DNA from: Dehalococcoidia bacterium | GTDB taxonomy: Bacteria > Chloroflexota > Dehalococcoidia > GIF9 > AB-539-J10 | DNA length: 64,000 nt | Reading direction: 5' to 3' | Assembly: GCA_003562475.1 (NCBI GenBank) | Contig: PWUU01000039.1 | Location: 89 to 64,088, forward strand | In this document: positions 28,546 through 54,110 of the stretch, one piece after another | Position numbering within the stretch: the first letter of the stretch is position 1 | Layout: each line of letters starts with the position of its first letter | Notes under the pieces: model-generated | What the model was told of the DNA's origin: nothing | Seen by the model: the letters and a program-made list of their open reading frames with translations, nothing else | Databases searched by the model: none | Position numbers and translations under genes: made by a program

Positions 28546-28683
28546 CTATCTGGAAAGGATCGCTATCAGGCCAACGAGGATCAGGTAAATCCCCACGAGG
28601 TAGTTCAGAATCTTGGGGAATATCATCACTATGATGCCAAATACCAGACTCGCCACACCAAACAGTAGACTCGCTCCAGGCAT
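28546..28683 (-). CDS. small membrane protein (DUF3096-like, 45 aa)
   Basis: The ATG at 28683 is preceded by GGAGG. The sequence has two hydrophobic helices (VFGIIVMIFPKILNYLVGIYLILVGLIAI). It fills the gap before the ROK gene stop. Confidence 0.5.
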   Translation of the reverse strand: MPGASLLFGVASLVFGIIVMIFPKILNYLVGIYLILVGLIAILSR

Positions 28684-43678: not shown

Positions 43679-44866
43679 ATGGCCCGCTGTATCTTCCATG
43701 TGGACCTTGATGCATTCTTCGTAGCCGTGGAGCAACTGCACAACCCGTCGCTGCGAGGAAAGCCGGTGGTCGTCGGAGGAAATCCGGGCTCGCGAGGAGT
43801 GGTATCGGCAGCATCTTATGAGGCTCGACGCTATGGTGTACACTCGGCGATGCCGCTCATGCAGGCACAACGACTCTGCCCCCAAGCCTTCTTCGTCCCG
43901 TTGCACTTCTCGCGTTACGCCGAGGCCTCACGACAGTTCATGTCGCTGCTGGAGAGCATGTCCCCACTCATTGAAACCCTCGGCCTTGATGAGGCGTTCC
44001 TTGACATGAGCACCATTCTCAGGGATTTCGAACAGGCACGTTCACACGCCATGATACTCAAGCACCGCGTGCGCCAGGAACTGGGACTGACCGTCTCGGT
44101 CGGAGTGGCCACATGCAAGACCGTCGCCAAGGTCGCCTCGGACCATGGTAAGCCCGATGGCCTCGTGCTCGTGCCACCGGGAGAAGAGAGGAGTTTCCTG
44201 GCGCCACTCGACGTCCGGAGGCTGCCAGGTGTGGGCAAGAAGACAGCTGAATGCCTGTATGAGTTGGGTGTCCGGACCATAGAAGATCTTTCCATTCTTT
44301 CCGAAGAAGTGCTCCGTCTGAAGATCGGCAAGTATGGCGATACCCTGCTGCGTCATGCGAGAGGCATCGACACCAGTCCAGTCGAGCCCCACGGGGAACC
44401 GAAGTCCATTAGCCGCGAGACAACTTTTCAGGCCGACCTCGTCGACTCTGCCTTCCTTCAGAGTTCGCTGCATGCGATGTGCCGGGAGGTAGCGCAGGAT
44501 CTCCGGGACCACCGCAGACGGGCGGGAGCTGTAGCGCTCAAGCTTCGTTACGAGGATTTCCAGACGGTCACGAGGCAGACCTCTCTACGAGAACACACGA
44601 GCGAAGCCGCAGTGATCTTCACTGCGGCCGGGGCGCTCCTCAGAACAGTCCTCTTGAGCGAGCGACGACGCGTCCGCCTCATTGGAGTCAAGGCACTCCG
44701 ATTGTCCGGGCCCGAACGCCAGCTTGATATGTTCTCGCGAGATGCAGAAAAGCTCCAGAATTTCGAACAGGCAGTTACGGAGCTCCGCAGCCGGTACGGA
44801 CCAGAATCCATCCGCACGCTCCGCAACCTTCAGGATAGAAGCGATCTTTTTCCGCGTAGCACTTGA
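43679..44866 (+). CDS. dinB: DNA polymerase IV
   Basis: Contains HVDLDAFFVAVE, PVVVGG and S.SYEAR..GV. The little-finger domain is present. Confidence 0.9.
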   Translation: MARCIFHVDLDAFFVAVEQLHNPSLRGKPVVVGGNPGSRGVVSAASYEARRYGVHSAMPLMQAQRLCPQAFFVPLHFSRYAEASRQFMSLLESMSPLIETLGLDEAFLDMSTILRDFEQARSHAMILKHRVRQELGLTVSVGVATCKTVAKVASDHGKPDGLVLVPPGEERSFLAPLDVRRLPGVGKKTAECLYELGVRTIEDLSILSEEVLRLKIGKYGDTLLRHARGIDTSPVEPHGEPKSISRETTFQADLVDSAFLQSSLHAMCREVAQDLRDHRRRAGAVALKLRYEDFQTVTRQTSLREHTSEAAVIFTAAGALLRTVLLSERRRVRLIGVKALRLSGPERQLDMFSRDAEKLQNFEQAVTELRSRYGPESIRTLRNLQDRSDLFPRST

Positions 44867-44892
44867 CAGACATCACAACAAGCCTCTATCAT
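44863..44892 (+). promoter_or_regulatory. putative sigma70-type promoter of the ilv-leu operon (TTGACA - 18 nt - TATCAT)
   Basis: The -35 hexamer at 44863-44868 overlaps the dinB TGA. The -10 hexamer is at 44887-44892. Confidence 0.4.
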
Positions 44893-44908
44893 TCTTGACC
44901 AACACGTC

Positions 44909-45004
44909 ATGGACACACCGGCAAGAATAACCTCCCTTGGCCTCATCCTTAGCATCACTATTATCGTGCGCACCATGCGTGCGCCTGGGAGGCTGGCCGG
45001 CTAG
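44909..45004 (+). CDS. ilv-leu operon leader peptide (31 aa, Ile/Leu/Val-rich)
   Basis: Translates to MDTPARITSLGLILSITIIVRTMRAPGRLAG. Nine of the 14 codons at positions 7-20 are I/L/V. It is followed by a hairpin and a terminator, and it is homologous to the leader at 52891-52992. No obvious SD sequence. Confidence 0.55.
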   Translation: MDTPARITSLGLILSITIIVRTMRAPGRLAG

Positions 45005-45029
45005 TCCACACTGTTAGATAACGACAAGC

Positions 45030-45067
45030 AAAGGGGCTCTCCCAGGCGGAGAGCCCCTTTCTTTTAT
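45030..45067 (+). terminator. intrinsic terminator (attenuator) upstream of ilvB
   Basis: AAAGGGGCTCTCC-CAGGC-GGAGAGCCCCTTT, a 13-bp stem followed by CTTTTAT. It ends about 40 nt before the ilvB ATG. Confidence 0.7.
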
Positions 45068-45108
45068 CCGCGCTGCTGACAGCGCAACACCGAGAGGAAA
45101 GGAGCAGC

Positions 45109-46803
45109 ATGAAGAGGACAGGTGCACAGATCATCTGCGAATCCCTGGTAAGGGAGGGGACGGATGTAATCTTCGGCATTTCCGGCGGCACTGTCATTCC
45201 ACTGTACGATGCCTTCTCGGAGTATCCCCAGATTCGCCGGGTGCTGGTACGCCACGAGCAGGCCGCCGCCCACGCCGCTGCGGGCTATGCCCGCTCGAGG
45301 CAGAAGGCAAGCGTGTGTGTTGCAACCTCTGGTCCTGGCGCCACAAACCTCGTGACGGGAATCGCGGACGCCTACATGGATTCGACTCCTATGGTGGTGA
45401 TAACGGGTCAGGTCTCAACCGGGCTGATCGGAAGAGACGCTTTCCAGGAATGCGATATCACCGGCATCACATTGCCCATCATAAAACACAATTACCTGGT
45501 ACACTATGTACGCGACCTCGCTCGCACCATCAAGGAGGCGTTCTACATCGCCCAGACTGGCAGACCCGGTCCGGTGCTGATCGATATCCCCAAGAACGTG
45601 CAACTGGCAACGGACGACTTCCACTACCCGGAGACCGTCGACCTGCCGGGCTATGCACCCGTGTCTGACCCCGACCCATCACAGGTGGCAAATGCAGCAC
45701 AGTTGCTCAACAAGGCCACTCGTCCCGTTATCATCGCAGGAAGGGGAGTGACCATCTCGCAGGCCTACGATGAGCTGAGAGAGCTTGCCGAATCCTTTCA
45801 GGCGCCCGTTGTGCACACACTCCTAGGCCTTGGCTCATTTCCTCCCCGGCACGACCTCAACCTGGGAATGCTGGGACACCACGGCATCGTGGCTGCCAAC
45901 AGGGCTGTGCAGGAGGCCGACCTCATTCTGGCCGTAGGCACACGCTTCGGTGACCGCACAACAATGAGAACACGGGATTTCGCCCGGAGGGCAGTCGTTG
46001 TCCACATCGATATCGACCCCGCCGAGATCGGCAAGAATGTAGCTCCTTTCGCAACAGTTATCGGCGATGCCAGGGCAGTCCTGCGCCAGCTCAACCCCCT
46101 GCTGAAAAGAGCCGAGAGGCCCGGGTGGCTCTTACAGGTGCGAACATGGCGAGATGCACACCCGCTGGTGGCAGCCAACCGGACTTCGAGCCTGTCAGCC
46201 CGCACTGTCATCCGCCAGATATGTCGCTCGGCCGACGAACACACCGTAATCGTCACAGGTGTAGGGCAGCATCAGATGTTCGCCGCGCAGGAGTACGCCT
46301 CACCGAGGGTGAATGGTCTCATTTCTTCCGGGGGACTGGGGACTATGGGCTTTGAATTGCCTGCTGCGATCGGAGTCCAGATGGCGTCACCGCAGGACTC
46401 AGTGTGGGTTGTCGCCGGTGATGGTGGATTCCAGATGACCATGCAGGAGCTCTCAACCGTCGTACAGGAAGGCCTGCCAATTAAGATTGCTGTGATCAGA
46501 AATGGTTACCTTGGCATGGTGAGGCAGTGGCAGGATCTCTTCCAGCAGCACAACTACGTCGATGTCGCGCTTCATGCGCCCGATTTCGTGAAGCTTGCCG
46601 ATGCCTACGGGATCGCGGCAGTTCGCGTCGAGAAGGAAGAGGACCTGGTACCTGCACTCGGCCGCGCGAGTGCTCACCCCGGGCCGTTCCTCATCGATTT
46701 CGCCGTGGACCCCGAGGAGAACGTGTATCCCATGGTCGCGCCGGGAGAGGGCCTGGACTGCATCATAGAAGCTCCCGGCAGGATCACCGCAGTAAAGACG
46801 TAG
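45109..46803 (+). CDS. ilvB: acetolactate synthase, large (catalytic) subunit
   Basis: ThDP enzyme. The N-terminus is G...I...L...G.D..FG..GG, and the ThDP motif is GGLGTMGF...VAGDGGFQM. Confidence 0.9.
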   Translation: MKRTGAQIICESLVREGTDVIFGISGGTVIPLYDAFSEYPQIRRVLVRHEQAAAHAAAGYARSRQKASVCVATSGPGATNLVTGIADAYMDSTPMVVITGQVSTGLIGRDAFQECDITGITLPIIKHNYLVHYVRDLARTIKEAFYIAQTGRPGPVLIDIPKNVQLATDDFHYPETVDLPGYAPVSDPDPSQVANAAQLLNKATRPVIIAGRGVTISQAYDELRELAESFQAPVVHTLLGLGSFPPRHDLNLGMLGHHGIVAANRAVQEADLILAVGTRFGDRTTMRTRDFARRAVVVHIDIDPAEIGKNVAPFATVIGDARAVLRQLNPLLKRAERPGWLLQVRTWRDAHPLVAANRTSSLSARTVIRQICRSADEHTVIVTGVGQHQMFAAQEYASPRVNGLISSGGLGTMGFELPAAIGVQMASPQDSVWVVAGDGGFQMTMQELSTVVQEGLPIKIAVIRNGYLGMVRQWQDLFQQHNYVDVALHAPDFVKLADAYGIAAVRVEKEEDLVPALGRASAHPGPFLIDFAVDPEENVYPMVAPGEGLDCIIEAPGRITAVKT

Positions 46804-46813
46804 GAGAACCTCC

Positions 46814-47314
46814 ATGGAAGACAGATTGCACACCCTCGTCTCGCTGGTACAGGATGAGCCCGGGGTCCTCACAAGGATCGCCGGACTCTTCCGCCGCCGT
46901 GGATTCAATATTGAGAGTCTCTCTGTCGGCCACTGCGAGCAACCGGGACTCTCACGCATGACTATAGTAGTCAAGGGGGGCGATGCTGAGGTCGAGCAGG
47001 TGACGAAGCAGCTCGACAAGCTCATCAACGTAGTAGCCGTGACTGACATTACGCGCCGCGACATGGTGGCAAGGGAACTGGCTCTCATCAAGGTGTCCGC
47101 CGAATCGGACGACCGTAGCGAGATAATGCAGATGGTCGACATATACCGTGCCAAGATCGTTGACGTGGCTTCGGACTCGTTGACGGTCGAGGTTACAGGC
47201 GGAGAAGACAAGATAGACTCGCTGCTTACACTGCTTCGACCCTTCGGAATCACGGAAATGGCTCGTACAGGACGGACCGCCCTCACAAGAGGCAGCCAGT
47301 CCAGCATCAAATAA
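46814..47314 (+). CDS. ilvN: acetolactate synthase, small (regulatory) subunit
   Basis: The ACT domain starts [27 protein letters not shown]. Confidence 0.9.
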
Positions 47315-47336
47315 GAAGGCTTTGGAGGATTTGAAC

Positions 47337-48329
47337 ATGGCCAGGATCTACTACGACAGCGACGCCAACCTTTCACATCTTAAAGGGAAGCTTACCGGCA
47401 TCATAGGCTACGGCAGCCAGGGGCATGCGCATGCGCAGAACCTGAGAGACAGCGGATGTGACGTGGTGGTTGCCAGCAAGCCCGGCGGTGTCGGCTGGAA
47501 GGCAGCCGAGGCCGACGGGTTCACGGTTATGACCGTGGCGGATGTTACAAAGAAGGCCGACGTACTCACTCTCCTGGCGCCCGATAACCAGCATGCCGCA
47601 ATATACTCGGAATCCATCGAGCCTCACCTGACTGCAGGTAAGACCCTCATGTTCGCTCATGGGTTCAACATTCACTACTCCCAGATCGTGCCACCCGGGG
47701 ACGTCGACGTCAGTATGGTGGCCCCAAAGTGTCCCGGACACATGCTGCGCACTATCTACACGGAGAACGCCGGGCCTCCGGCCATCATGGCCGTATACCA
47801 GGACGTCTCGGGCAACGCGAAGGAGGTGGCCCTGGCATACGCCAGGGGACTTGGGTGTACACGTGCAGGAGTCATCGAGACAACGTTTGCTGAGGAGACG
47901 GAAACGGACCTCTTTGGCGAACAGGCCGTGCTCTGTGGAGGAGTGACGGCTTTGATTAAGGCAGGCTTCGACACGCTTGTCGAGGCTGGTTACCAGCCCG
48001 AAATCGCCTACTTCGAGTGCCTCAATGAACTGAAACTGATCGTCGACCTTATCTACCAGGGTGGGCTGAAATACATGCGCTATTCGGTAAGCGACATTGC
48101 CGAGTTTGGCGACTACACCCGCGGGCCGCGGGTCATTGACGATTCCGTCCGCGAGGAGATGCGCAATATCCTCGGTGAGGTCAAGAATGGCATCTTTGCA
48201 CTCGAATGGGTCCTCGAGAACCAGGCTGGTCGACCACACTTCACCGCGATGAAACGAAACGAACAGCAGGAGCTCATCGAAGTTGTTGGTGAGCAACTGA
48301 GAGGAATGATGCCATGGACGAAGAAGTAG
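47337..48329 (+). CDS. ilvC: ketol-acid reductoisomerase
   Basis: ATG at 47337 after GGAGGA. Contains [17 protein letters not shown]. Confidence 0.9.
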
Positions 48330-49951
48330 ACATTACGAAGGACGACTACGCGTCGTCTGATGTGCATTCGACAGCAGCCGCAAGTGATACGGTACTGATC
48401 TTCGATACATCGCTGAGAGACGGCGAGCAGGCCGCAGGCACGAGTCTCACCTCGGGAGAAAAGCTCTCCATAGCCCGGCAACTCGACAGGCTTGGTATCG
48501 ACATCATCGAGGCCGGTTTCCCCGTCAGTTCGCCTGGTGACTTCGAAGCTGTGCAGCTTATCGCAAGGGAAGTCAGACGCCCCATCATATGCGGACTGGC
48601 CCATTGCAGACCTGCCGCGATCGACAGGGCGTGGGAGGCTCTCCAGGATGCGGCGCGCCCGCGCATCCACGTGTTTCTCTCCGCCTCCGACATCCAGCTC
48701 GCACACATGCTCAAGAAGAGCCGTCTCGAGGCCCTGGAGATGGCCCGCGAGATGGTCGCCAGGGCGAAGAGCTACACGCACGATGTTGAGTTCTCTCCAA
48801 TGGATGCCACGCGCGCCGAGCCCGACTTCCTGTATCTGTTGCTTGAGGCGGTTATTGACGCCGGAGCAGTCACCGTGAACATCGCCGATACCGTTGGCTA
48901 CAGCATGGTGCACGATTTCGGCAATCTCTTAGAGGGCATCCTGTCAGACGTGCCGAACATTCGCCAGGCATGCCTCAGCGTGCACTGCCACGACGACCTC
49001 GGACTCGCGGTTGCAAACAGCCTTGAGGCAGTGCGACGTGGCGCCCGCCAGGTGGAATGCACCATCAACGGCATTGGCGAACGCGCCGGGAACGCCGCGC
49101 TCGAAGAAGTCGTCATGGCGCTGCATACGCGTCGGGACGTGTTCGGGCTCAGGACCAACGTCGATACCACTCAGCTCTATAAGACGAGCAGGATAGTGAG
49201 CGACCTCACAGGATTCGTGGTACAGTCGAACAAGGCAATCGTGGGAGCGAACGCGTTCCGTCACCAATCGGGCATTCACCAGGATGGAATGGTCAAAGAG
49301 TCAACTACCTACGAGATCATGGATCCTCGCTCCGTTGGCATTCCGGCCAGCAGCCTCGTGCTCGGCAAGCTCAGCGGCAAACACGCCTTCCGGGAGCGCC
49401 TGGCCGAGCTGGGCTTCTCGCTGAGTGATGAAGCTTTGGCCCACGCGTTCCGTGCGTTCAAGGATCTCGCAGACAAGAAACGAGAGATTGCTGACCGCGA
49501 TCTTGTGTCGCTCGTCGGCGAGGAGCTGCGTCAGGAAACTCAGGTGTACAAACTGGATCATGTGGATGTATCCTGCGGCGACCATAGCCTCCATTCGGCA
49601 GCGGTTCGACTCATCGGCCCGGATGGGCAGGCCCTTGAGGACGCTGCACTGGGGACAGGACCGGTTGATGCGGTCTACCAGGTCATTAACCGCATCATAG
49701 GTATCCCTAATTCTCTGGTCGAATTCACGATCAACGCGAACACTGAGGGCTTCGACGCAATAGGAGAGGTGTTGATTCGAATTGAGAGTGAGGGCCGTCT
49801 CTACACCGGACGGGGCGCATCAACCGATATCGTCGTAGCCAGTGCAAAGGCTTATATGAACGCGCTCAACCGACTCATTATCTTCCACCGGGGTGCGGCA
49901 GAACAAGGCGCCCTCTACAACGCCACCCAGGGCATTCACGAGGCAGCGTGA
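48314..49951 (+). CDS. leuA: 2-isopropylmalate synthase
   Basis: Contains [11 protein letters not shown] and H.H.D.G...AN. The C-terminal LeuA dimerisation/regulatory domain is present. The gene overlaps the ilvC end by 16 nt. Confidence 0.9.
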
Positions 49952-51246
49952 TGTCGACCATCACAGAGAAGATTATTGCGGCACACTCCGGGCGAGACGC
50001 CATCTCCCCTGGAGAGTTTGCCAATGTCTCGGTCGACATGGTGCTCGCCAATGACATCACAGGACCGCTCGCCATCACGGAATTCCGTAAGCTGGGCGTC
50101 ACACACGTCTTCAACCCGGCACGAATCGTGATGGTCCCCGATCACTTCATACCTAACAAGGACATCGCCTCGGCCATTCAGGCCAGGGAACTACGCGACT
50201 TCGCCCGCGAACAGAGCGTGCTGTACTACGAGACAGGAAGAGGAGGTATCGAGCACGTCCTTCTGCCCGAAGAGGGCCTTGTTGGGCCTGGACAGGTCAT
50301 CATAGGAGCTGACTCTCACACCTGCACGTACGGCGCGCTGGGAGCTTTCGCCACAGGAATGGGGTCTACCGACATTGCAGCAGCAATGGCCACGGGCGAC
50401 ATCTGGATGAAGGTTCCTCCTACCATCAAGTTCGTTCTTCACGGACATCTCCAGCCCTGGGTCGGCGGCAAGGATCTCATTCTGCACATTATTGGCGACA
50501 TCGGTATCGACGGTGCCTTGTACACTGCCATGGAGTTCCATGGAGAGGCTATCAATAGCCTCGACATGGATGGACGCTTCACCATGACGAACATGGCAAT
50601 AGAGGCCGGTGCCAAGGCGGGCATCTGCCCCGTGGACGCAACCGTACAAGAATACATCGCCGCACATCCACCCCGCAGTGGCACCGCTCCTCACAAAGTA
50701 CATGCAACAGATTCCGATGCGGACTACTACCGAATCATCGAGTACGACGCGTCCAGCATCCAGCCTATCGTGGCCTTTCCACACCTGCCGTCAAACATTA
50801 AGCCGGCGAGCGAGGCAGGCGACGTGCCGATTGACCAGGTAGTGATCGGCAGTTGCACCAACGGACGATTGAGTGACCTCAGGGTCGCCGCCCAGGTCTT
50901 GAGGGGCCATCGTATACACCAATCACTGCGGTGCATTGTGATCCCGGGCACTCAACGCATCTATCGCCAGGCCATGGAGGAGGGGCTGGTGCACGTGTTT
51001 ATCGACGCAGGAGCTGTCGTCAGCACACCAACTTGCGGCCCGTGCCTTGGAGGCTACATGGGGATTCTCGCGCCCGGAGAACGCTGCCTCTCAACCACCA
51101 ACCGGAACTTCGTCGGCCGGATGGGCAGTCCACAATCCGAGGTATATCTTGCCGGGCCAGCCGTTGCCGCCGCTACTGCGATTACCGGACGCGTTACCAG
51201 TCCGGTCGAGGTGGCCGGTCGCCCAACAAAGGGGACGTCATGGTAG
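49951..51246 (+). CDS. leuC: 3-isopropylmalate dehydratase large subunit
   Basis: The ATG overlaps the leuA TGA by 1 nt. Aconitase-family Cys ligands are present (GADSHT...GSCTNGR...CG.C.G). Confidence 0.9.
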
Positions 51247-51737
51247 TGCTACGCGGCAGGGTACACCCTTACGGCGCGGATGTGGACACCGACGCCATCA
51301 TCCCTGCCAGATATCTCAATGTGTCAGAACCTGCGCTTCTGGCCGAGCACTGTATGGAGGATATTGACCCCGGCTTCCGGAGCCGCGTTTCGGCAGGAGA
51401 CATCATTGTGGCAACCGCCAACTTCGGCTGCGGTTCGTCCCGAGAGCATGCCCCCATCGCCCTCAAGGCATGCGGCATATCTTGCGTCATTGCTCATAGC
51501 TTCGCGCGAATCTTTTTCCGTAATTCCCTCAATATCGGCCTGCCGCTGCTCGAGTGTGCCGAAGCTGTCGATTCCTGTACACCCAACGATACACTGGAAG
51601 TGGACCTCATTGGCGGCAGGGTCACCAACATATCAAGAGACCTCACATTCACCGCTAAGCCGTACCCGGAATTCATGATGGGTATCATCAATTCGGGAGG
51701 GCTCATAGCGTATACCAGGCGCAGACTGGAGGAATAG
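51240..51737 (+). CDS. leuD: 3-isopropylmalate dehydratase small subunit
   Basis: ATG at 51240, a 7-nt overlap with leuC. Contains DVDTD.IIPA.YL and [12 protein letters not shown]. Confidence 0.9.
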
Positions 51738-51741
51738 ACTC

Positions 51742-52839
51742 ATGGGTTACAGGATAGCAGTACTTCGCGGCGATGGCATCGGCCCGGAGGTAACGGCTGA
51801 GGCACAGAAGGTCCTGGAGGCAGTTGCCGGCCGTTTTCAGCACGGTCTCCACTTCGAGGAAGCACCGGTTGGGGGGGCAGCACTCGACACGATGGGCACC
51901 CCTATGGCGGACGAGACTCTTACACTATGTCAGGGTTCCGACGCGATTCTGCTCGGTGCGGTCGGTGGCCCGAAGTGGGACGATGCCAGGACTGATCTGC
52001 GGCCGGAACAGGCACTGTTCCGGCTGCGCAAGGAACTCAACCTCTTCGCCAATATCAGGCCCGTCATGTCCTACCCGATGCTGGTCGACAAGAGTCCATT
52101 GCGGCCCGAGATTGTGACAGGCGCGGACATCATCTTCGTCCGAGAACTTACCGGCGGGCTGTACTTCGGTCAGCCCAAGAAACGCTGGGAGACCCCGCAG
52201 GGCAGGCGTGCGGTGGACTCGGAGGAGTACTCCGAGCACGAGATCGCGAGAGTGGTGCGCGTGGCGTGCGAACTGGCCAGGAATCGGCGCCGCATGGTTG
52301 TCTCGGTAGACAAGTTCAATGCGCTGATCTCTTCACGACTGTGGCGCCAGGTGGCAACCGAGGTAGCGGAGGAATACCCCGACGTCGACCTGTCCCACAT
52401 GCTGGCCGACACCTTTTCAATGCAACTCATTATGAATCCCACTCGGTTCGATGTTGTTGTCACAACCAACATGTTTGGAGATATCTTCACTGATGAGGCT
52501 GCGGTGCTCGCAGGTTCAATGGGCTTATTGCCTTCGGCCAGTCTGTCCGGACTCCCGACGGGAAGGACACTCGGACTGTATGAACCGATCCATGGCTCCG
52601 CTCCCGACATTGCCGGGGAGGGGATTGCCAATCCCCTTGCTGCCATACTCAGTGCAGCCTTGCTTCTGAGATACTCGCTTGACCTCGAATTCGAGGCGCA
52701 GGCTATCGAAGTCGCAGTCACTTCAGTCCTGGAGGATGGCTACAGAACAAGCGATATCTACTCCGAGGGCACGAAAAGGGTGACCACCCAGGAGATGGGG
52801 GACCTCATCGTCGCAAAGATTCGTGCGGCGAAGGGTTGA
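51742..52839 (+). CDS. leuB: 3-isopropylmalate dehydrogenase
   Basis: Contains I.VL.GDGIGPEV, NLFANIRP and NMFGDI.TDEA. Confidence 0.9.
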   Translation: MGYRIAVLRGDGIGPEVTAEAQKVLEAVAGRFQHGLHFEEAPVGGAALDTMGTPMADETLTLCQGSDAILLGAVGGPKWDDARTDLRPEQALFRLRKELNLFANIRPVMSYPMLVDKSPLRPEIVTGADIIFVRELTGGLYFGQPKKRWETPQGRRAVDSEEYSEHEIARVVRVACELARNRRRMVVSVDKFNALISSRLWRQVATEVAEEYPDVDLSHMLADTFSMQLIMNPTRFDVVVTTNMFGDIFTDEAAVLAGSMGLLPSASLSGLPTGRTLGLYEPIHGSAPDIAGEGIANPLAAILSAALLLRYSLDLEFEAQAIEVAVTSVLEDGYRTSDIYSEGTKRVTTQEMGDLIVAKIRAAKG

Positions 52840-52864
52840 CACTGTGTAGCGGTGTTTCTACAAT
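52836..52864 (+). promoter_or_regulatory. putative sigma70-type promoter (TTGACA - 17 nt - TACAAT)
   Basis: Near-consensus hexamers at 52836-52841 (overlapping the leuB TGA) and 52859-52864. Confidence 0.5.
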
Positions 52865-52890
52865 GTACTCCACACAAACGAGAGTTCGGG

Positions 52891-52992
52891 ATGAAGACTC
52901 CAGCCGTGCCTGCGACAACCCCGGTGGTAGCAGTGGTGCTTATCGTGCGCACCGAGAGTGCGCACGGGAGGATTCTTCGACCGGTAGAGTAG
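52891..52992 (+). CDS. ilvE leader peptide (33 aa, Val/Leu/Ile-rich)
   Basis: Translates to MKTPAVPATTPVVAVVLIVRTESAHGRILRPVE, with the run VVAVVLIV at positions 12-19. It is followed by a 9-bp hairpin, an antiterminator segment and a terminator. Confidence 0.6.
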   Translation: MKTPAVPATTPVVAVVLIVRTESAHGRILRPVE

Positions 52993-53020
52993 GCGGAGAT
53001 AGTAAGTCCACAGGAAAGAG

Positions 53021-53055
53021 AAGAAGCCTCCCGAAGGGGAGGCTTCTTCTTGTAT
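53021..53055 (+). terminator. intrinsic terminator (attenuator) upstream of ilvE
   Basis: AAGAAGCCTCCC-GAAG-GGGAGGCTTCTT, a 12-bp stem followed by CTTGTATT. Confidence 0.65.
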
Positions 53056-53186
53056 TCCCGGCTCGTAGCGAAAGGAGGACAACGAGAGTACACGACCATG
53101 GTGCAACTCACGTCTTCTGGCAGTTTGCAGCGCTACAGAAATAGAGAGAGCTTTCGCTCATAAGTACGGATAGGAGGAATGCAACA

Positions 53187-54110
53187 TTGGAACCACAGCC
53201 TTACGCATTTTTTCAAGGACAGTATATGCCCCTCAAGGATGCCAAGATCGGGATTCTCACCCAGGCGCTGCACTACGGCACGGCATGTTTCGGTGGGATT
53301 CGCGCTAACTGGGATGCCGAGAACGAGCAGTTCTGCCTGTTCCGGCTCAAGGACCACTATCGACGCCAGCTTGACGCCTGCAAGATCCTGAATATCTCCC
53401 TCCCCTATGACGAGCACAAGATGGCTGAGTTCACCGTGGAGACTCTGCGGCGGTCCGGATTCAGGGAGAACCTCTACTGCAGACCGCTTGCGTACAAGTC
53501 ATCCGAGGCCATCGGCGTGAAGCTGCACGACCTTGAGGACGATTTCTTCGTCATAGTCACTCCCCTCCCGCCATATCTCGGTACTGGCGGCATCAGGTGC
53601 TGTATGTCTTCGTGGCGGCGCGTGAGCGACAGCCAGATATCCCCACGAGGGAAGATCACGGGCATCTATGTGAACAGCGCCCTTGCGAAGACCGATGCCA
53701 ACCGGGCCGGTTTCGACGAGGCCATCATGCTTAACGAGAAAGGACATGTCTCCGAAGGCACCGGAGAAAACATCTTCGTCGTCATCAAGGGGAACCTCAT
53801 CACCCCGCCACCATACGACAGCATTCTCCTGGGTATCACGAGAGATACGGTGATGCAACTGGCTGAGAACGAGCTGGGCATTCCAACAGTGGAGCGAAGT
53901 ATCGACAGAAGTGAACTCTACGTGGCCGACGAGGCTTTCTTCACCGGCACGGCAACCAACGTGGCGCCCATCGTCTCCATCGATTACAGAACCATCGGCA
54001 ACGGTGAAACGGGTCCAATCACCGCCAGGCTTCAGGAGCTGTTCAACCAGGTTGCGTTCGGCAGAAACCCCAAGTACTCCGAGTGGTACACAATCGTCAG
54101 GTACGACTAG
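53187..54110 (+). CDS. ilvE: branched-chain amino acid aminotransferase
   Basis: TTG start 9 nt after AGGAGG. Class IV aminotransferase motifs are present (EG.GENIF.V, P....ILLGITRD, E.F.TGTA). Confidence 0.9.
   Translation: MEPQPYAFFQGQYMPLKDAKIGILTQALHYGTACFGGIRANWDAENEQFCLFRLKDHYRRQLDACKILNISLPYDEHKMAEFTVETLRRSGFRENLYCRPLAYKSSEAIGVKLHDLEDDFFVIVTPLPPYLGTGGIRCCMSSWRRVSDSQISPRGKITGIYVNSALAKTDANRAGFDEAIMLNEKGHVSEGTGENIFVVIKGNLITPPPYDSILLGITRDTVMQLAENELGIPTVERSIDRSELYVADEAFFTGTATNVAPIVSIDYRTIGNGETGPITARLQELFNQVAFGRNPKYSEWYTIVRYD

Follow-up and report, generated by a model that had tools for sequence, protein, structure and literature searches.

Dehalococcoidia bacterium assembly GCA_003562475.1 carries on contig PWUU01000039.1 a set of genes for the synthesis of branched-chain amino acids (BCAA), ilvBNC-leuACDB, as a single co-directional block of 7.7 kb, and the question raised by this locus is how the entry of RNA polymerase into the block is controlled. 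We analyzed a 64,000-nucleotide stretch of this contig (positions 89 to 64,088 of its forward strand; hereafter the window) in which the block occupies positions 45109-52839; all coordinates refer to the window, and features lie on its plus strand unless stated otherwise. A sequence-only reading of this DNA had proposed that the 242-nt spacer between dinB and the ilvB start codon (ATG at 45109) holds an unannotated leader peptide rich in Ile, Leu and Val, followed by an intrinsic attenuator. Conservation across 19 orthologous spacers, insertions and deletions that respect the reading frame, and covariation in both the terminator and the antiterminator support this layout. Judged by comparative sequence analysis, the spacer very probably encodes a classical ribosome-mediated (leader-peptide) transcription attenuator controlling the ilvBNC-leuACDB operon.

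The evidence depends on how the orthologous spacers were gathered. Species representatives in the genome collection possess IlvB proteins that are at most 60% identical to that of the window, and the leader described here was found in none of these relatives; ilvD or a T-box is present upstream of ilvB instead, and in the closest of them ilvB directly follows ilvD. A closer IlvB clade (84-65% identity) was located in a large protein database, from which the contigs of eight proteins were fetched; the nearest named IlvB relatives stem from metagenome-assembled genomes (MAGs) of Dehalococcoidia and Dehalococcoidales. Seven of the fetched contigs (IlvB 84-68% identical) keep the gene order pyrF-(DUF951)-dinB-spacer-ilvB-ilvN-ilvC-leuA, with spacers of 245-286 nt. 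A scan of metagenomes with a 21-base degenerate leader pattern added 16 true loci; one more match (L101) had arisen by chance and was discarded. The resulting comparative set comprises 19 distinct complete orthologous spacers, eight of which, the window included, were obtained independently of any DNA pattern. The gene calls available for nine related contigs do not place any gene in the dinB-ilvB spacer.

The putative transcription unit begins with a strong promoter. Its -35 hexamer TTGACA (44863-44868) overlaps the TGA stop codon of dinB and is followed after 18 nt by the -10 hexamer TATCAT (44887-44892), an arrangement that matches the sigma-70 consensus at 11 of 12 positions; in the surrounding 2 kb, three promoter-like sites were found where 0.6 were expected. 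The hexamers, the gap between them and the overlap with dinB are placed as the sequence-only reading had described them, and the promoter recurs in all 19 spacers, with an invariant TTGACA, identical spacing and a -10 element of the form TAnnAT. Since a promoter scan found no promoter-like site between the terminator described below and ilvB, expression of ilvB must pass through this terminator.

Behind the promoter lies an open reading frame (ORF) of 31 codons plus a UAG stop (44909-45004; MDTPARITSLGLILSITIIVRTMRAPGRLAG), whose start and stop codons are in frame in 19/19 spacers. The stop codon (45002-45004) is separated from the ilvB ATG by 104 nt. Ile, Leu or Val codons occupy nine of the 14 positions from codon 7 to codon 20, as had been counted before, a density that, among the 332 small ORFs of the 64-kb window that begin with ATG, is reached by only two. 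The other of these two ORFs (28546-28683, minus strand; MPGASLLFGVASLVFGIIVMIFPKILNYLVGIYLILVGLIAILSR) resembles a small two-helix membrane protein and not a leader. The regulatory run proper extends over codons 10-20 (L G L I L S I T I I V; 44936-44968) and contains four Ile, three Leu and one Val codon; it is kept in all 19 orthologues, with (G)LILSI(V/L/I)IIVRT as its core. Usage of rare codons was considered as an explanation for the run and dropped, as all of its codons are commonly used.

The way in which this ORF varies is informative with regard to its function. Across the 19 spacers the leader has 28, 29, 31 or 32 codons and ends in UAG or UAA. Four independent changes in its length (-9, -6, -6 and +3 nt) are all multiples of three, the last of them being an extra in-frame Ile codon in locus L090; in the untranslated linker that follows the stop codon, all lengths between 25 and 31 nt were encountered, without any frame constraint. 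Leader codons 2-9 are variable at each of their three positions, and hmmscan searches with four leader variants returned no Pfam or NCBIfam match at E <=10, including the families IlvGEDA_leader and IlvB_leader. It is therefore the reading frame that is constrained, and not the sequence of the peptide. Likewise, the leader alignment lacks the codon-position signature of protein-level purifying selection, as expected if the peptide itself is functionless. Constraint on the frame without constraint on the peptide is what would be expected of a leader for which the act of translation matters. No Shine-Dalgarno or other purine-rich motif precedes the leader ATG in any of the 19 spacers, and the ATG is invariably found 14-17 nt after the -10 element, which suggests a 5' untranslated region (UTR) of 10 nt or less.

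Downstream of the leader, a 13-bp GC-rich stem (AAAGGGGCUCUCC/GGAGAGCCCCUUU; 45030-45060) with the loop CAGGC is followed by CUUUUAU, so that the intrinsic terminator as a whole extends over positions 45030-45067. We verified the coordinates of the stem and of the T tract in front of ilvB as given by the sequence-only reading. The terminator of the window was scored at -25 kcal/mol, and a GC-rich terminator of 12-15 bp with a U-rich tail is present about 40 nt before ilvB in 19/19 spacers (-26 to -37 kcal/mol). Its stem is paired in 99.1% of the cases across the sequences and includes three compensatory pairs, a degree of covariation that was not matched in any of 500 shuffles. A small GC hairpin located behind the terminator and ahead of the ilvB Shine-Dalgarno sequence (45070-45085) was rejected, as it is neither significant nor conserved among the 19 sequences (z-scores near 0).

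The strongest evidence for a switch comes from the partner that competes for this terminator. The antiterminator had originally been drawn in a register in which GGGAGGCT pairs with the 5' arm of the terminator through G:U pairs and one mismatch; this register proved to be suboptimal. A better one joins CGCCUGGGAGG (44982-44992; codons 25-28 of the leader, hereafter region 2) to UCUCCCAGGCG (45038-45048; region 3) in a mismatch-free helix of ten Watson-Crick pairs and one G:U pair, with a calculated energy of -19.4 kcal/mol. Region 3 consists of the last five nucleotides of the 5' arm of the terminator, its 5-nt loop and the first nucleotide of the 3' arm; antiterminator and terminator are mutually exclusive because they share these bases. 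We assessed the covariation of regions 2 and 3 in an ungapped alignment for which GGGRGG and the end of the C run served as anchors, since MAFFT misaligned the arm and the loop of the terminator where the C run differs in length by one base. In this alignment, the antiterminator helix is 92.6% paired, compared to 41-60% when the partner is slid along. Double changes were recorded in 15 cells, as opposed to 3.7 in the shuffles, none of which (0/500) reached as high a value; they affect four pairs of the helix, one of which occurs as C-G, U-A, A-U and U-G.

This covariation can be read directly from two triplets. In the relatives, the bases immediately before GGGAGG are CCU, UCU, UCC, CUU, ACC, ACU or UUU, and the first three bases of the terminator loop are AGG, AGA, GGA, AAG, GGU, AGU or AAA. 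Full complementarity is found in eight of the ten distinct combinations of the two triplets (permutation P about 0.001). The amino acid specified by codon 26, in contrast, varies freely (P, S, L, T or F), so that the constraint acts on the RNA; and as nothing else would make the terminator loop follow codon 26, the covariation implies an alternative pairing between the two segments. The GGGAGG motif itself is kept in the spacers and is replaced by GGGGGG in two of the 19.

Two further pairings upstream of the antiterminator may complete the device. Region 1 (CCUCCC; 44931-44936) is able to pair with GGGAGG (44987-44992), a pairing that appears in the minimum free energy (MFE) fold and is possible in 94.5% of the cells across the 19 sequences. 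The hairpin P1 (GCGCAC-loop-GUGCGC; 44968-44984), which was noticed before and is present at that position, has a stem that is invariant among the orthologues and a loop that varies. It contains GUGCGCAC, an 8-nt palindrome that is retained in paralogous copies as well, and its 3' arm overlaps the 5' strand of the antiterminator; P1 could serve as a pause hairpin or as a sequestering hairpin. An outer helix of the MFE fold, CCGGC (44918-44922)/GCCGG (44996-45000), was dropped, since it is 48% paired with a shifting register. The 181-nt leader as a whole folds at z = -4.6 relative to shuffled sequences.

The calculated energetics fit a switch between these conformations. Before the 3' arm of the terminator has been made, the antiterminator state is modelled at -49.6 kcal/mol and the state combining P1 with the region 1:region 2 pairing at -46.9 kcal/mol, a gap of about 3 kcal/mol; in the full-length leader, the terminator state is ahead by 17 kcal/mol (-68.8 versus -51.6 kcal/mol). 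The first two states are thus nearly equal in the truncated transcript, and the comparison of terminator and antiterminator that the sequence-only reading had suggested returns a clear preference for the terminator at full length. With a modelled ribosome whose A site is at codons 11-19, region 2 is free and the antiterminator forms. A modelled ribosome at the stop codon covers positions 44987-45016, including GGGAGG, and leaves five of the 11 antiterminator pairs. Equilibrium folding of the full leader with such ribosome masks cannot discriminate between the states because the terminator is always returned, and it is the truncated, co-transcriptional view that is informative.

The mechanism that we propose for the ribosome-mediated attenuator depends on transcription initiation, leader translation, ribosome stalling and an order of folding events that would proceed as follows. 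Transcription would start a few bases past TATCAT, and the 31-codon leader would be translated while it emerges from RNA polymerase. When tRNAs charged with Ile, Leu or Val are scarce, the ribosome would stall at codons 10-20 and cover region 1 (if it stalls early in the run) and/or the 5' arm of P1, thereby freeing CGCCUGGGAGG; this strand would then pair with UCUCCCAGGCG once the latter has been made, the terminator would be blocked, and RNA polymerase would enter ilvB. When charged tRNAs are available, the ribosome would proceed to the UAG codon and cover GGGAGG, the antiterminator would be prevented, and the 13-bp terminator would fold, so that transcription would stop near 45062-45067, about 42 nt ahead of ilvB. 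If the leader is not translated at all, P1 together with the region 1:region 2 pairing would hold region 2 and again favor termination.

Copies of the same module elsewhere provide an independent view of its parts. Two occurrences of the motif GTGCGCAC-N5-GTGCG-N3-GGGRGG were detected in the window, compared to 0.01 expected. The second occurrence belongs to a homologous attenuator between leuB and ilvE (52836-53056) that possesses the same hairpin and GGGAGG switch. Its promoter consists of TTGACA (52836-52841), which overlaps the stop codon of leuB, and TACAAT after 17 nt; its leader ORF (52892-52993; MKTPAVPATTPVVAVVLIVRTESAHGRILRPVE) is rich in Val codons and contains the run VVAVVLIV. The GUGCGCAC..GUGCGC hairpin with GGGAGG is located at 52945-52971, and the terminator at about 53018-53050; complementarity between GGGAGGAUUCUUC (52966-52978) and the 5' arm of this terminator extends to 12 of 13 bases. 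The same arrangement is conserved before ilvE in L102, L110 and L105. Homologous leaders furthermore precede stand-alone ilvB paralogues, which lack ilvN and have other neighbors, at L091 (2290-2460; leader MNVIVRAVSNMLGLVLSLVLVVVRTERATGRLQA) and L092 (2304-2460; leader MNSLVLVGVLVLSLVLVAVRTERATGGLFS). In these, every Ile codon of the run is swapped for a Val or a Leu codon, giving LVLSLVLVVV; L092 shares one MAG, GCA_016930935.1, with the orthologous locus L090.

That the RNA switch stays constant while the codon run changes speaks for the codons as the element that senses. Loss of the Ile/Leu/Val run from spacers that keep the stems, which the sequence-only reading had named as the pattern that would tell against a ribosome-mediated mechanism, was not seen; the paralogues keep a run of altered composition. 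There is about an even chance that we are dealing with a lineage-specific modular attenuator, composed of the GUGCGCAC hairpin, the GGGAGG switch and the terminator, which was duplicated at least three times in one Dehalococcoidia clade and re-tuned through swaps of codons. If this is true, the Ile/Leu-rich copy at ilvBNC-leu, the Val-rich copy at ilvE and the Val/Leu-only copies at the second ilvB genes would answer to different BCAA, and the module would entail leader translation from a 5' UTR of at most 10 nt without a Shine-Dalgarno sequence as well as tight coupling of transcription and translation in an uncultured clade.

Several observations weigh against a ribosome-mediated switch. The lack of a Shine-Dalgarno sequence together with the very short 5' UTR means that initiation at the leader must be independent of such a sequence, unlike the situation in enterobacterial leaders. 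P1 and the region 1:region 2 pairing are conserved, yet they show almost no covariation. The truncated transcript favors the antiterminator at equilibrium even when no ribosome is present, so that termination as the default outcome rests on assumed folding kinetics. In the seven pattern-independent leaders of 31 codons (IlvB 71-84% identical to that of the window), the third positions of run codons 12-16 and 18 (CUC AUC CUU AGC AUC .. AUU; 44942-44962) never vary, and the only changes in these codons are two substitutions at first or second positions in L084; this invariance could hint at an additional RNA-level contact or at a requirement for particular tRNA isoacceptors. Finally, mutation of the candidate regulatory codons in the similar-looking ilvB leader of Streptomyces coelicolor is reported to have left regulation unchanged, unlike what a classical attenuator would do (PMC1262725).

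Some of these points also favor an alternative in which the switch is real but is set by a protein that binds RNA, by an uncharged tRNA or by a small ligand, any of which would recognize the invariant GUGCGCAC...GUGCG-GGGAGG core, the ORF being incidental. The hairpin/GGGAGG core and several codons of the run show an invariance of nucleotide sequence that goes further than coding requires, the ORF has no Shine-Dalgarno sequence, sister lineages use the tRNA-sensing T-box at ilvB, and the S. coelicolor leader provides a precedent. An incidental ORF would, however, have no reason to keep its start and stop codons in frame in 19/19 spacers or to change its length only by multiples of three next to a linker that is free to vary. 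That one such change adds an Ile codon, and that the paralogues keep the core and exchange Ile for Val or Leu, fits the sensing of codons; moreover, no T-box or other Rfam family matches the spacer, and the structure is small, without a complex conserved fold. We consider a trigger other than the ribosome unlikely.

A second alternative retains the translated leader but lets it act mainly on translation or on mRNA stability, for instance through ribosome reinitiation or Rho, rather than on intrinsic termination. According to a published proposal, leader ORFs enhance the translation of what lies downstream (PMC4833913), and pairing of the U tract with the ilvB Shine-Dalgarno region is possible in several orthologues. 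Such an action is very unlikely given the distance of 104 nt between the leader stop and the ilvB ATG with a strong terminator in between, the segment behind this terminator that lacks significant or conserved structure (z-scores near 0), and the covarying antiterminator, which targets the terminator and not the Shine-Dalgarno sequence. Least credible of all is the notion that the hairpin at 45030-45067 is a plain terminator of dinB, that the ORF is a hydrophobic micro-protein or nothing at all, and that ilvB owes its expression to leaky read-through or to a promoter that escaped notice: although there is no other terminator between dinB and the hairpin, the hairpin is scored as a terminator in minus-strand orientation too and the core of the peptide is hydrophobic and resembles a membrane helix, a plain terminator cannot explain why the terminator loop covaries with codon 26, which needs an alternative pairing, a conserved strong promoter separates dinB from the hairpin, the roughly 40 nt before ilvB are too short for a promoter, the module recurs before ilvE, behind leuB, and the C-terminal half of the peptide varies wherever RNA pairing permits.

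The ribosome-mediated attenuator that we favor has well-known functional counterparts. The ilvGMEDA operon of Escherichia coli and Salmonella is preceded by IlvL, a leader of about 32 codons whose mixed Ile/Leu/Val run affords a multivalent response to the three BCAA. As in ilvGMEDA, the module studied here comprises an intrinsic terminator and an antiterminator that exclude each other, and the 5' strand of the antiterminator is situated towards the 3' end of the leader ORF; the module differs in that there is no sequence relationship, the leader lacks a Shine-Dalgarno sequence and has a 5' UTR of at most 10 nt, the operon is ilvBNC-leuACDB, and the host is a Dehalococcoidia-like member of the Chloroflexota. 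The E. coli ilvBN attenuator employs the Val/Leu-rich leader IvbL in front of the acetolactate synthase gene ilvB, whereas the ilvB leader of the window is Ile/Leu-rich and without homology to IvbL. The Val/Leu-only leaders of L091 and L092 parallel the split in E. coli between Val/Leu and Ile/Leu/Val attenuators. The proposed logic, in which stalling leads to read-through, is that of the trp, his, leu and ilv attenuators.

Related arrangements have also been described outside the enterobacteria. The ilvB-II motif of Corynebacterium, the ilvB-OMG motif and the ilvB motif of Leptospira each contain a conserved I/L/V-rich upstream ORF (uORF) in front of ilvB (PMC10272879, PMC11109978). These motifs resemble the module of the window in combining an intrinsic terminator with a complementary antiterminator segment, and they are read as ribosome-stalling attenuation; in the Corynebacterium motif the antiterminator segment is located in the P1 loop, whereas here the 3' arm of P1 plus GGGAGG pairs into the terminator loop. 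Both sequence and fold set the module apart from all of these motifs, and GUGCGCAC was not found in the supplement of PMC10272879. Leader peptides with terminators upstream of ilvB are likewise known from Actinobacteria (PMC1262725), and the ilv-leu operon of Staphylococcus aureus is preceded by a leucine-rich attenuator peptide (PMC5794164). The latter is similar to the case at hand as a leader peptide that precedes an operon of both ilv and leu genes outside the Proteobacteria; the S. aureus system is, however, Leu-specific, acts together with CodY and is unrelated to the module by sequence.

Sister lineages control the same gene in a different manner. The T-box family RF00230 had no match at E <=10 in the spacer and none in the whole 64-kb window. 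The same search detected T-boxes (98-114 bits) directly upstream of ilvB in five MAGs of Dehalococcoidia/Chloroflexota (L007 1844-2113, L009 2111-2413, L013 430-664, L015 2263-2471 and L017 2174-2416). Because these sister MAGs carry T-boxes at ilvB, control of the same gene within the class appears to fall to a T-box in some members and to a leader peptide in others. Like the module, the T-boxes of Chloroflexota sit before ilvB and have a choice between terminator and antiterminator as their output; they bind uncharged tRNA directly and operate free of translation, whereas the module would need translation. Other Rfam families, amino-acid leaders and the ppGpp/ykkC riboswitch among them, did not match the spacer at threshold either, the hits being terminator-like chance matches of at most 19 bits, and none reached threshold anywhere in the window.

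RNA-based regulation by T-boxes and riboswitches is documented for Chloroflexi (PMC2494555, PMC3766115). In the literature that we searched, we did not find a report of leader-peptide attenuators in Chloroflexi, Chloroflexota or Dehalococcoidia, a mention in the cross-phylum attenuator survey of Lopatovskaya et al. 2010 (PubMed 20198868) not being excluded. Short I/L/V-rich ORFs that are unrelated to the leader of the window were observed upstream of ilvD-ilvB operons in other Chloroflexota and Acidobacteriota, e.g., MNSDLAILILVIDT, MKRNQIILVLVIYT, MSSTLSLTGVIILVLVELLVIEGLIPVGKRLR and MISFFSLFILIAILVLVIVLENPLPVWAVRVSAGESRSR; the loci are L004 (652-760), L005 (689-790), L008 (about 215-400), L014 (about 537-640), L018 (about 470-640), L036 (567-750) and L039 (653-800). 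GC-rich terminators were detected after the ORFs of L004, L005, L036 and L039, and terminator-like hairpins were seen by eye in L008 and L018. From these unrelated leaders at other ilv loci, attenuation seems to be widespread, and unannotated, in these groups.

The module adds an unannotated regulatory gene and an RNA switch to a 7.7-kb biosynthetic operon and would place leader-peptide attenuation of BCAA genes beside T-boxes and riboswitches in Dehalococcoidia-type Chloroflexota. Since attenuation needs a ribosome that closely follows RNA polymerase, the module is indirect evidence that transcription and translation are coupled in a clade of which few members have been cultured. A leader without a Shine-Dalgarno sequence and with a very short 5' UTR raises the question of how its translation starts, and three paralogous copies with a constant switch and differing runs offer a natural experiment on the evolution of attenuator specificity. 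What this case adds to the known attenuators is the strong covariation, the seemingly re-tuned paralogous copies and the contrast with the T-boxes of sister lineages.

The genes surrounding the module were identified by NCBIfam matches. DNA polymerase IV is encoded by dinB (43679-44866; stop codon at 44864-44866) upstream of the module. The controlled operon starts with ilvB (45109-46803), ilvN (46814-47314) and ilvC (47322-48329) and continues with leuA (48314-49951), leuC (49948-51246), leuD (51243-51737) and leuB (51742-52839); behind the second attenuator follows ilvE (53187-54110). The Shine-Dalgarno sequence of ilvB (GGAAAGGAG; 45096-45104) contains the element AAAGGAG, which is kept in the orthologues.

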